Under the pieces are notes generated by a model. It was given only the letters and a program-made list of their open reading frames with translations. It had not been told where the DNA came from and searched no databases. DNA of 64,000 bases. Origin: Octopus vulgaris. Its lineage: Eukaryota. Positions within the stretch are counted from its first letter, which is position 1. The number at the start of each line of letters is the position of its first letter. Positions 34,896 to 53,194 of this stretch are shown piece by piece. Both the position numbers and the translations under genes were made by a program. Location: contig OX597814.1 of assembly GCA_951406725.2 (NCBI GenBank), forward strand, positions 129,580,001 to 129,644,000. Reading direction: 5' to 3'.

Positions 34896-35068
34896 GTTAA
34901 TATCCAGATCTGCACCCGGTGTGAAAAATGCAAAGGAAAATGTGTAGTAGGTGTAAATGCATCGTATATAAAAGGAATATGACGAAAAAAATGCGCGCAG
35001 ACAAAGGGAGGGAGGGCCCCCAAAAATTCCCAAGATCAACCATACAAAATCCGAGCAGTAAAGCTCAA

Positions 35069-38000
35069 CACCCGGTCACAGAAGTGAAACAGAAATCGTC
35101 TAATACTTCTAATGCAATGTATATTCAACAAATATTGAGACAAAGATGTGCTCTGACAAACGATGGTGTGGGGAGGGGGCTAGGAAAATTCCAACGATGA
35201 ACCCTACAGAATTCGAGCAGTAAAGCTGAACACCCGGTCACAGAAGTGAAAACGAAATCGTCTAATACTTCTAATTTAACGTATATTCAACAAATATTGA
35301 GACAAAATGCGCGCTGACAAACGGGGGTGTGTTGAGGGGACTCGGAAATTACATACGATCAACCGAACAGAATCCGAGCAGTAATGCTCAACACCAGGTC
35401 ACAGAAGTGAAACAGAAATCTTCTAATACTTCTAATGCAATGTATATTCAACAAATATTGTGACAAAACTGCGAGCTGACAAACGGGGTTGTGGGGAGGG
35501 GGCTAGGAATTACACAAGTTCAACCGTACAGAATCCGAGCAGTAAAGTTCAACACCCGGTCACAGAAGTGAAACAGAAATCGTCTAATACTTCTAATGCA
35601 ATGTGTATTCAACAAATATTGTGACAAAACTGCGAGCTGACAAACGGGGTTGTGGGGAGGGGGCTAGGAAAATACACACAATCCACCGTACAGAATCCGA
35701 GCAGTAAAGTTCAACACCCGGTCACAGAAGTGAAACAGAAAACGTCTAATACTTCTAATGCAATGTATATTCAACAAATATGAAGACAAAAATGTGCGCT
35801 GACAAACGGGGGAGTAGGGAGGGGGCTAGGAAAATACACACGATCAACCGTACAGATTCCGAGCAGTAAAACTCAACACGCTTTCACAGAAGTGAAAAAG
35901 AAATCGTCTATAACTTCTAATGTAATGTATATTCAACAAATATTGAGACAAAAATGCGCGCTGACAAACGAGGGTGTGGGGAGGGGGCTAGGAAAATACA
36001 CACGATCAAACGTACAGAATCCGAGCAGTAAAGCTCAACACCCGGTCACAGAAGTGAAACAGAAATCGTCTAATACTTCTAATGCAAATATATTCAACAA
36101 ATATTAAGACAAAAATACGCGCCGACAAACGAGGGTGTGGGGAGGGGGCTAGGAAAATTCCAACGATGAACCCTACAGAATTCGAGCGGTAAAGCTCAAC
36201 ACCCGGTGACAGAAGTGAAACAGAAATCGTCTACTACTTCTAATGCAACGTACATTCAACAGATATTGAAACAAAAATGCGCGCTGACAAACGGGAGAGT
36301 GAGGAGGTGGCTAGGAAATTACACACGATCAACCGTCAGGAATACGAGCAGTATAGCTCAACACCCGGTCACAGAAGTGAAACAGAAATCGTCTAATACT
36401 TCTAATGCAATGTATATTCAACAAATATTGAGACAAAAATGCGCGCTGACAAACGGGGGAGTGGGGGAGGGGGCTAGGAAATTACACACGATCAACCGTA
36501 AGGAATCCGAGCAGTATAGCTCAACACCCGGTCACAGAAGTGAAAACGAAATCGTCTAATACTTCTAATGCAATGTATATTCAACAAATATTGAGACAAA
36601 AATACGCGCTGACAAACGGGGGAGTGGGGAGGGGAATCGGAAATTACAGACGATCAACCGTTCAGAATCCGAGCAGTAAAGATCAACACCCGTTTACAGA
36701 AGTGAAACAGAAATCGTCTACTACTTCTAATGCAATGTGTATTCAACAAATATTGAGACAGAAATGCGCGCTGACAAACGGGGGAGTGTGGTGGGTGCTA
36801 GGAAATTACACACGATCAACCGTACGGAATCCGAGCAGTATAGCTTAACACCCGGTCACAGAAGTGAAACTGAAATCGTCTAATACTTCTAATGCAATGT
36901 ATAACAAAAATACGCGCTGACAAACGGGGGTGTAGGGAGAGGACTCGGAAAATACGTACGAACAACCGTTCAGAATCCGAGCACTAAAGCTCAACACCCG
37001 GTCACAGAAGTGGAACAGAAATCGTCTAATACTTCTAATGCAATGAATATTCAACAAATATTGAGACAAAAATACGCGCTGACAAACGAGGGTGTCGCGA
37101 GTGGGCTAGGAAAATTCCAACGATGAACCCTACAGAATCCGAGCAGTAGAGATCAACACCCGCTTACAGAAGTGAAACAAATATCGTCTACTATTTCTAA
37201 TGCAATGTATATTCAACAAATATTGAGACAAAAATGCGCGCTGATACACGGGGGTGTGGGGAGGGAGCTAGGAAAATACACACGATCAACCGTACAGAAT
37301 CCGAGCAGTAAAGCTCAACACCCGTTCACAGAAGTGAAACAGAATCGTCTAAAACTTCTAATGCAATGTATATTCAACAAATATTGAGACAAAAATGCGC
37401 GCTGACAAACGGGGGAGTGGGGTGGGAGCTAGGAAAGTACACACGATCAAATGTACAGAATCCGAGCAGTACAGCTCAACACCCGGTCACAGAAGTGGAA
37501 CTGAAATCGTCTAATACTTCAATGCAATGTATATTCAACAAATATTAAGACAAAAATGCGCGCTGACAAACGGGGGAGTGGGGAGAGGGCTAGGAAAATT
37601 CCAACGATGAACCCTACAGAATTATAGCAGTAAAGCTGAACACCCGGTCACAGAAGTGAAAACGAAATCGTCTAATACTTCTAATTAAATGTATATTCAA
37701 CAAATATTGAGACAAAAATGCGCGCTAACACACGGGGGTGTGTGGAGGGGACTCGGAAATTACATACGATCAACCGAACAGAATCTGAGCAGTAAAGCTG
37801 AACACCCGGTCACAGAAGTGAAACAGAAATCGTCTAATACTTCTAATGCAATGTATATTCAACAAATATTGAGACAAAAATGCGCAATGACAAACGGGGG
37901 AGGGGGGAGGGGGCTAGGAAATTACACACGATCAACCTTACTGAATCCGAGCAGTATAGCTCAACACCCGGTCACAGAAGTGAAACAGAAATCGTCTAAT

Positions 38001-51730: not shown

Positions 51731-51950
51731 TTGGGTGGACAAACACATACACACACACACACACATATATACATATACATATATACATATATACGACGGG
51801 CTTCTTAAATTTTCCGTCTACCAAATCCACTCACAAAGCTTTTGTTGGCTCGAGGCTTTAGTAGAAGTGACTTGACCAATGTACCACGCAGTAGGACTGA
51901 ACCCGGAACCATTTGGTTGGTGTGGAAGCTACTTACCTCATAGCCACTCC
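51728..51950 (-). mobile_element. SINE family A half-copy truncating the array
   Basis: Array ends mid-monomer at caaatattg|ttgggtggacaaacac...; SINE head ends ...tagccactcc. Confidence 0.8.
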
Positions 51951-53194
51951 ACTCCTTTAATTTCTATATATTTCTCGAATGCGTTCCTTTTTAATCTCGC
52001 CAGCGCTGTTTCCTCGGACACATTTCTCGACACATCTCATGTTTTTTTGTAACTTTCAAGTAAAACAATAAAAAAATCCTTAATTTCATATTGCTGTATG
52101 AAAAATACTCCGAAAGAAAACTTTGCAGAAAGGTGAGCAGATTGATTACACATTTCATTTCATTATGTTACCGTGTGTATTTTCCGAGCCCCCTCCTCAC
52201 GTCCCTGTTTGTCAGCGCGCAGTTTTGTCTCAATATTTGTTGAATATACATTGCATTAGAAGTATTAGACGATTTCTGTTTCACTCCTGTGACCGGGTGT
52301 TGAGCTTTACTGCTGGGATTCTGTACGGTTGATCATATGTATTTTCCGAGCCCCCCTCCCGTTTGTCAGCGCGCATTTGTTCCGTCATATTCCTTTAATA
52401 TACGATGCATTACACCTGTTACACATTTTCGTTTCCATTTTTCCCACCGGGTGCGGATCTAGATCTGTGGTTACTAGTTTAATTCTACTTGCACAGCACA
52501 TTTCAGTCGACCAAAGCATTGTGAATGAAACTTTGTTGACAGAAACTCAGAGTAGCTTTGCTGAATGGAACGCTGGTCTTGTTTTAGGGTGCAATACTCA
52601 ATCTGTCCACCATGACTGGCATTCATTCTGTGGAAATCATGCCGGTCAGGCATCCGGTATTAAGATAACCTACTCTTTTTCTCAGGCCAATCTCAGCAAC
52701 CTTGGAAAAGGTCATGAGCGTTGTCCTTTGCCATCTAAATTAACCATAAAAATTCCCCAGCTGGGTTGCTTTATTCTCCTAGATAATACTCAATAGTTGC
52801 TCTTTTTCATATCAAGATATTTAGAGACAGAACTGTTAGCTCTTCTTAGTATTGGCATATTTGACTAGTGTATCAGCTTAAAACTGATTTATCTTTTCCG
52901 TCCCAGCCTTATAAGAGTTTTTCTTACCGTATCACTTTACCATGGAGTTTCGTATCTTAAATTTATTTTCAAATCCTTTTTATCTTCACAGATGTTCGTT
53001 TGTTTCAACCTCTGTGTAATAACTGCTGGCCACCCTGGAAGTGGAGAACTTTTGTTAATCTATTAGCTCAGCTCTAATCTGTAGTAGCTGCTATTGATTC
53101 GAAGAAGTATTATTATCTATATTTTAAGCAGTATTCTAATTGCTGATGTTCACCTTTCTTTGAGGTAAAAACAGATTCTAAATATCTTTAATCA

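Follow-up and report, generated by a model that had tools for sequence, protein, structure and literature searches.

How does a long tandem array come to lie inside one arm of a DNA transposon? The question is raised by a 64,000-bp stretch of the Octopus vulgaris genome (GCA_951406725.2, contig OX597814.1, 129,580,001–129,644,000), called the window below, in which an element at 34895–52464 carries inverted copies of the same terminal sequence at its two ends and an array of 162-bp monomers in its left arm. A sequence-only reading of the window had described this as a satellite being born within a foldback-like transposon whose superfamily it left undecided. The analysis reported here favors, with a probability of roughly 85%, a single nonautonomous Merlin copy in which a 162-bp subterminal unit of the terminal inverted repeat (TIR) was likely amplified in place to 103 units by repeated unequal exchange. 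An old copy would have inserted at an 8-bp target, an internal deletion would then have joined its inner domain to the opposite arm, and a flanking deletion would have taken the right tip together with the target-site duplication (TSD), blocking further transposition. Unequal exchange between sisters or homologues, or slippage, would have duplicated single units and multiunit blocks (a 17-mer and, later, alternating types), and two other copies of the family would have expanded separately.

The plus-strand array of about 103 monomers is borne out by Tandem Repeats Finder (35034–51730, period 162, 102.6 copies) and by segmentation, which divides the tract into a diverged terminal unit of 155 bp starting at 34914, then 103 monomers (35069–51661; one reduced to 105 bp and two others to 146 bp), and a partial monomer of 69 bp (51662–51730) that ends at a family-wide junction with a repeat of the short interspersed element (SINE) type. 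All of these units are on the plus strand, with no minus-strand unit within the array. The left terminus (GGTTAATATCCAGATCTGCACCCGG) and terminal TIR unit together occupy 34895–35068 on the same strand, with the exact family pattern at 34895, and the terminal unit is, as had been proposed, a diverged monomer, homologous in alignment over its full length at ~70% identity. The arms are indeed inverted: 52179–52464 matches 35189–34902 at 86.9% over 289 bp (E 2e-95). On the minus strand, the right arm consists of one terminal unit (52299–52464) and about 125 bp of monomer (52173–52298) joined to the inner domain; this partial monomer is 94% identical to W009 in the window array versus 87–90% to the best monomers of other loci.

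The sequence between the arms is also part of the family. It holds no transposase, as first noted, and what had been called ~200 bp of unique DNA is a 222-bp inner TIR domain (51951–52172, plus strand) with 40 matches in the genome (the best 40 of 161 candidates). The claim of a SINE between the arms stands in part: a SINE-like repeat is there (51731–51950, minus strand, 72–84% identical to seven other window copies), but only its 5′ half, as a component of the element and with an identical junction across the family. In relatives such as L033–L042, L049, L061, and L075, monomer piece 1–69/70 likewise adjoins the SINE. A fresh SINE insertion at this locus is ruled out, as the whole family has this half SINE with this junction. 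The abundant repeat is presumed to be a SINE, a label that is also that of the sequence-only reading and does not come from a database match; a free copy at window position 2741 extends ~170 bp beyond the half found in the element.

The element is a Merlin (IS1016-like) DNA transposon because its family combines GG…CC ends, 8-bp TSDs, and, in relatives, a PF12762 transposase with a D-D-E motif; the superfamily that had been left undecided is thus assigned. Merlin elements were reportedly treated by Feschotte in 2004 as DNA transposons related to IS1016/IS1595. The family's common end, GGTTAATATCYAGATC…GATCTRGATATTAACC, comes from 41 genome matches to the terminal 126 bp (the best 40 of 207 candidates), and its termini are GG…CC. 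The exact terminal 25-mer occurs 185 times in the genome (93 forward and 92 reverse), with 0 occurrences of a reversed-pattern control. The sequence-only reading had proposed to look for the terminus as paired inverted ends elsewhere, and it is found in this form, with 45 two-ended copies examined, drawn from 122 merged regions fetched. An exact 8-bp TSD flanks 25 of the 45 (30 with at most one mismatch), while shuffled pairing gives a mean of 0.075 and a maximum of 2 in 1000 shuffles; with two sets of segmental duplicates collapsed, the count is 23 of 41. By length, exact flank matches in the 45 copies number 2 at 4 bp and 25 at 8 bp, and a 9-bp TSD is found in a single case (L010). A 4-bp TSD read from the flanks tatc/gatc, as had been considered, is ruled out: both sets of letters are element sequence inside the terminus, and 8 bp is the duplication length of the family. 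The true left end, GGTTAATATC, is at 34895, 10 bp farther out than the boundary of 34905 assigned earlier.

Relatives supply the transposase that the window copy lacks. L075 has an open 316-amino-acid reading frame that matches PF12762 and no other family (E 1.3e-15), with D-D-E blocks VEIDE, YSDCW, and TIERFW at residues 153, 222, and 260, and the transposase is collinear with an arm of the same makeup (inner domain, half SINE, monomer, and terminus). The 10 kb upstream of this copy (L181) yielded no 5′ TIR. The two-ended L166 (2573 bp, GG..CC, TSD CTTTTCTC) encodes a transposase of 316 codons, 92% identical to that of L075 and interrupted by one stop; it has terminal-type units only, without a SINE arm, and its own TIRs are 86.9% alike. 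The C-terminal third of the transposase is kept between monomer arms in L073. No Pfam match to Zn_Tnp_IS1595 was found at E ≤ 0.001 in the three proteins scanned (3/3), although the N terminus has Cys pairs, and no fully intact two-ended autonomous copy is present among the loci examined.

Throughout the family, the TIRs are built of tandem units: a terminal unit, 162-bp variants, half a SINE, and the inner domain. The closest relative of the window copy, L061 (C5:79,403,300–79,407,981; 86% over 540 bp), is a foldback in which both arms hold a monomer, the SINE half, and the inner domain around what is left of a transposase at the center (EIDETVLVRRKYNR, 87% over 39 bp), together with 3′ untranslated region at 79.5%. 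The inner domain is inverted in both L061 arms (91.6%), and in L075 and L073 it separates the SINE arm from the transposase. Since L075 and L061 hold transposase sequence at the place where the inner domain of the window copy meets its right-arm monomer, the window copy would be an internal-deletion derivative that lost the transposase region at this point. Its interior is 82–86% identical to relatives, while young members of the family are 96–99% alike.

The right side of the window copy is truncated. Its end is at 52464 rather than at the 52461 given earlier, and the final 7 bp of the terminus, ATTAACC, are missing. The left flank ends in the 8-mer GAAATTAA (34887–34894), the tail of a SINE-like repeat and, by the 8-bp rule of the family, the presumed left TSD copy. 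If both arms belong to one insertion, GAAATTAA or GAAATAAA would be expected after an intact right terminus; a search for GAAAT[TA]AA within 52401–54500 found no right copy. A single deletion probably took the right tip, the TSD, and flanking DNA, because the end is 7 bp short, it abuts a SINE-like fragment that lacks its 5′ part, and the left 8-mer is not repeated. This decayed fragment (52465–52560, plus strand) shows a weak local alignment to the SINE, and the right flank beyond it is otherwise single-copy.

The internal structure of the array agrees with the earlier proposal of one-sided growth from subterminal TIR repeats within one nonautonomous TIR element. Mean pairwise monomer identity is 87.4%. 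The left domain (35069–43619, plus strand) comprises 53 monomers of ~162 bp in a 17-unit (~2.74-kb) higher-order repeat, with 94.0% identity at offset 17 versus ~88–90% elsewhere, except at the multiple 34 (91.9%), and a self-match of 6008 bp at offset 2734 (93.4%). The right domain (43620–51661, plus strand) begins with the 105-bp deleted unit and continues with 49 monomers of alternating types, identity being 83.8% at offset 1, 88.8% at offset 2, and 90.5% at offset 34. A tree was built from 163 columns for 170 monomer-type units out of 195 (25 terminal-type units and the 105-bp unit were omitted), and in it 102 window monomers make up one side of a branch (95/73). An exact 29-mer of the array has 12 occurrences in the window and a single further one in the rest of the 2.8-Gb genome, in a C5 unit. 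Because the monomers form one clade, include a 17-unit higher-order block, and have a 29-mer nearly confined to the window, the array likely grew in place. Divergence from the nearest partner has a median of 3.1% and quartiles of 1.9–4.3%, and 39 of the 103 monomers are at or below 2.8%.

Sequencing runs labelled with other organism names bear on the assembly and the age of the insertion. Four of 24 listed runs, all in the form of short-read contigs, were examined: X2 (organism A), X3 (B), X11 (C), and X12 (D), with X2 not counted as independent because it may be related to the source of the assembly. The left junction is bridged by X3 and X11 contigs (34851–34998, 44 letters outside, with 4 and 3 differences), and the junction of the inner domain with the right arm is bridged by an X2 contig (52068–52246, 0 differences). 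At the truncated right junction, X2, X11, and X12 have single-copy contigs that begin at 52435/52436 and extend into the flank as found in the window; with 29–30 letters inside the element, they are one or two under the 31-letter bridging rule, a shortfall explained by the expectation that contigs end at a repeat. Paralogous contigs continue with ATTAACC at 52464. Given these bridged junctions and a longest exact repeat inside the array of 199 bp, which itself disfavors duplication by the assembler, the array is not an artifact of assembly junctions; its length of 103 units is the length as assembled. No empty orthologous site was seen in the four runs, with neither a joint nor a loose end, and for X12 no listed contig crosses the left junction.

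X12 has the truncated junction, and its flank differs from that of the window at 37 of 1305 letters (2.8%, a hand sum over four pieces at 1–6%); insertion and end loss therefore likely predate the split between the window and X12 sequences. With 39 of the 103 nearest-partner divergences at or under the same 2.8%, a part of the duplications or conversions probably took place after the end loss, although taking the minimum over many partners biases such divergences low. The description of the locus as a snapshot of satellite birth is not supported, as the mean difference between monomers is 12.6%, runs labelled with other organism names have the same insertion, and the monomer variant of this array is unspread in the assembly. 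Dating by arm–arm divergence is ruled out, since the TIRs of L166 itself differ by 13%.

The genome holds two other long arrays. A query of three monomers returned 74 matches (the best 39 of 186 candidates), and both arrays lie in family copies: one of ~13 units at C5:79.40 Mb and one of ~33 plus 5–6 inverted units at C5:92.82 Mb. In the tree, the 92.82-Mb array clusters with young dispersed arms (100/99) and away from the window units, so its expansion appears separate. The array at 79.40 Mb occupies one arm of L061, whose other arm has a 1.1-kb insert. The left termini of the two C5 arrays were not found within ~14 kb and 7.6 kb upstream. As an observation on the 92.82-Mb locus (L141/L142, C5:92,819,600–92,826,270), its young array mixes terminal-type and monomer-type units, and a 15-unit block is duplicated at 99–100%, either very recently or as an assembly duplication. 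The window array shows traits of a satellite, being arranged head to tail with higher-order structure and array-specific homogenization, but in the assembly it lacks the abundance of a classical satellite, with its multilocus or heterochromatic arrays free of the parent element: only three long arrays were found, all attached to element parts. As far as the assembly shows, it is an old, local, unspread expansion and not a newborn genome-wide satellite. The arrays probably expanded neutrally at their own sites, without spreading.

Other histories could in principle produce the same arrangement. The array might have grown elsewhere or in one step, either as a long-armed element that moved whole or as a rolling-circle product whose excised circle reinserted. 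The depth of monomer divergence, which matches the age of the element, means that several unit types may have come with the insertion, and one rolling-circle event could yield the threefold 17-mer block. This history is nonetheless improbable: no donor is seen for the array, whose exact 29-mer is shared with just the one C5 unit; the duplications inside it are of many ages, as the quartiles indicate, and of many offsets (7, 14, 15, 17, and 34); and an arm with more than three counted units is found in none of the 90 arms of two-ended copies. Very improbable is a transposon that was the vehicle and not the source, with a host satellite captured by, or inserted into, a Merlin copy. Capture is the model published for Xenopus miDNA4 (PMC12628747), and unassembled heterochromatic arrays may escape a search of the assembly. 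Against it, the monomer can be aligned over its whole length with the terminal TIR unit, which bears the terminus; two-ended copies, L051 among them, have single monomers in each arm; and the only other long arrays returned by the three-monomer query (the best 39 of 186 candidates) are inside family copies.

The least probable of these histories takes the two arms as remnants of independent insertions that happen to face each other, a point the sequence-only reading had itself marked for checking. It would account for the missing TSD, for terminal units that are 86.6% alike, and for a right terminal unit that resembles other family copies (up to 91.8%) more than it does the left unit. The full-length L166 also has TIRs of similarly low identity, two-ended copies flanked by exact TSDs (L043 and L049) show the order arm–SINE half–inner domain–opposite arm as well, and the right-arm monomer is nearest to the window array; part order and monomer kinship thus speak against separate insertions. 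Several points do weigh against in-place growth within a single Merlin insertion. With no TSD at the window copy itself, the case for one element depends on its structure and on the kinship of its monomers; the tree gives the right-arm monomer a weakly supported place as sister (56/73); and the low likeness of the terminal units counts on this side as well. The window clade has an SH-aLRT (Shimodaira–Hasegawa-like approximate likelihood ratio test) value of 73 on 163 columns, with an unsettled bootstrap. Monomer divergence of 12.6% is about as deep as the divergence of the element from its relatives (14–18%), and growth may therefore have begun before the end loss. The monomers at C5:79.40 Mb are old and do not form one clade (3 changes), which makes the independence of that expansion less clear, and the loci examined are the top matches to window queries, a nonrandom sample. 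Block duplications of many sizes and ages would fit unequal exchange, a mechanism read from the pattern of the repeats.

A bolder reading, in which the family is a recurrent satellite nursery, is tentative and rather unlikely. Under it, TIR units, as putative transposase-binding repeats, would stay short while a copy is mobile, and loss of a terminus would lead to runaway arrays on the kilobase scale. Two-ended copies have 1–3 counted units in 90 of 90 arms (inner partial units uncounted), and all three long arrays lack one intact terminus, as do the majority of short monomer-bearing regions. As a predictor of long arrays, end loss did not hold up, with 0 of 10 two-ended regions versus 3 of 25 other monomer-bearing regions, the window included (one-sided Fisher ~0.35). 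If the nursery reading were true, the arrays would amount to three natural replicates, differing in age, within a single genome, and each would offer as many as 100 clustered docking sites to Merlin transposases or to domesticated Merlin proteins.

The route from transposon to satellite is known in flies and frogs; Merlin as the source of an array is the new part. According to PMC8101967, Merlin elements have 5′-GG termini, 8-bp (rarely 9-bp) TSDs, imperfect TIRs of 24–462 bp, internal tandem repeats, and a single transposase with a DDE_Tnp_IS1595 domain and a D-D-E motif, and 191 Merlin sequences are listed for Octopus bimaculoides. The same text proposes the repeats as "proto-satellites," with a Merlin source that is predicted only, and its arrays have 2–5 units (e.g., 3–4 of 163 bp in Sy.k_F2). 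Here, by contrast, the TIR is itself made of the repeats, its arm also contains the half SINE and inner domain, and arrays reach ~13, 33, and 103 units.

The earlier comparison with Tetris is apt, as in both cases a subterminal unit derived from the terminal domain was amplified inside a nonautonomous element. According to PMC4079207, Tetris/TIR-220 of Drosophila virilis is likewise nonautonomous and foldback-like, with a subterminal tandem unit from the terminal domain and kilobase-size arrays within the element (up to 66 copies); unequal crossing-over was proposed, and loss of mobility was linked to long arrays. Tetris was placed in Mutator by TSD size alone, with its autonomous copy unfound (PMC4079207), whereas the transposase-bearing relatives here are Merlin; TIR-220 is spread widely in beta-heterochromatin (PMC4079207), whereas three long arrays were found here. 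The foldback class as a whole (Tetris, FB, and Galileo) shares long modular TIRs with tandem subterminal repeats from the terminal domain, but it is mobilized by Mutator or P-element transposase, while the linked transposase here is PF12762. The octopus element is foldback-like in its working and falls outside the Tetris, FB, and Galileo families, since its partner transposase is Merlin.

Xenopus miDNA4 and Xmix/Xstir are, like the element here, miniature inverted-repeat transposable elements (MITEs) with a tandem array of variable length, and satellites derived from Xenopus MITEs lose their terminal inverted repeats in long arrays (PMC12628747, PMC9659126). The repeat of miDNA4, a Tc1/mariner element, is proposed there to have been captured internally (PMC12628747), whereas the octopus unit duplicates the terminal unit of its own TIR. 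Both reviews list MITE- and TIR-derived satellites, and "Merlin" is absent from the accessible text of each (PMC9659126, PMC12628747). A literature search whose scope left aside subscription papers, Repbase, Dfam, and the supplements of PMC8101967 found no report of a kilobase-scale array from a Merlin TIR; the family may already be catalogued in Repbase or Dfam. One genome holds the whole series, from a transposase-bearing copy through young MITEs and arms of 1–3 units to arrays of ~13, 33, and 103 units. Unlike in Tetris, the mobilizing transposase is known, so that ideas on TIR repeats as binding sites and on the immobility of long arrays become testable.

Several further observations concern the wider family. 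Young MITE subfamilies of ~540 and ~790 bp (L003–L029 and L171–L185) have cores 98–100% alike and the family terminus, and in many of them the terminal motif is duplicated in tandem (26 bp). One insertion, recognized by its TSD pair, is present as three segmental duplicates (L071, L072, and L074; C26, ~0.15–0.43 Mb), which differ in having one or two terminal-type arm units and an interior of 1700 or ~2650 bp; unit number therefore changed after insertion. Merlin is abundant and diverse in the genome, where 150 of 150 scored PF12762 candidates pass the cutoff (the best 150 of 476), many with open frames of more than 300 amino acids. Matches to the inner domain are also found in the inverted ends that flank more distant Merlin transposases (L063, L064, L090, and L101; 30–52% identity to that of L075), which suggests that subterminal sequence may be common to several Merlin families. 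A cluster of tandemly rearranged pieces of the Merlin transposase gene of this family lies at C30:5.095–5.119 Mb (L170). A family fragment at C29:23,214,580–23,215,130 (L168) has five tandem copies of a ~73-bp piece of the transposase 3′ untranslated region, a second, unrelated tandem unit arising in the family. Between the transposase and the arm, L075:4365–4745 resembles what we take to be a nonautonomous Helitron (TC start, hairpin, CTAG end), and pieces of it form the MITE core.

CACCCGG and GCGCGCTGACAAAC, putative candidates for the extra transposase-binding sites expected in repeats of foldback-type elements, recur in every unit type. No selection on these anchor motifs was seen inside the array, where they are conserved no better than the remaining columns, at 0.054 for CACCCGG and 0.074 for GCGCGCTGACAAAC versus a column mean of 0.079 and median of 0.029. 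The CpG columns of 35069–51661 mutate no faster than other C/G columns (0.082 versus 0.112), which hints at low germline methylation of the array. The SPAG16 context suggested earlier found no backing, with no WD40 match in the 136 of 225 window reading frames (at least 55 amino acids) that were scanned, a scan that short exons would escape. Elsewhere in the window, Pfam identifies transposase and retroelement fragments at 3442–3753, 21157–21909, 23527–23727, and 54533–55045 (mariner-like, zf-RVT retroelement, DDE_3, and Tc1-like), and a 6.8-kb degenerate (AT)n microsatellite array occupies 56970–63766.

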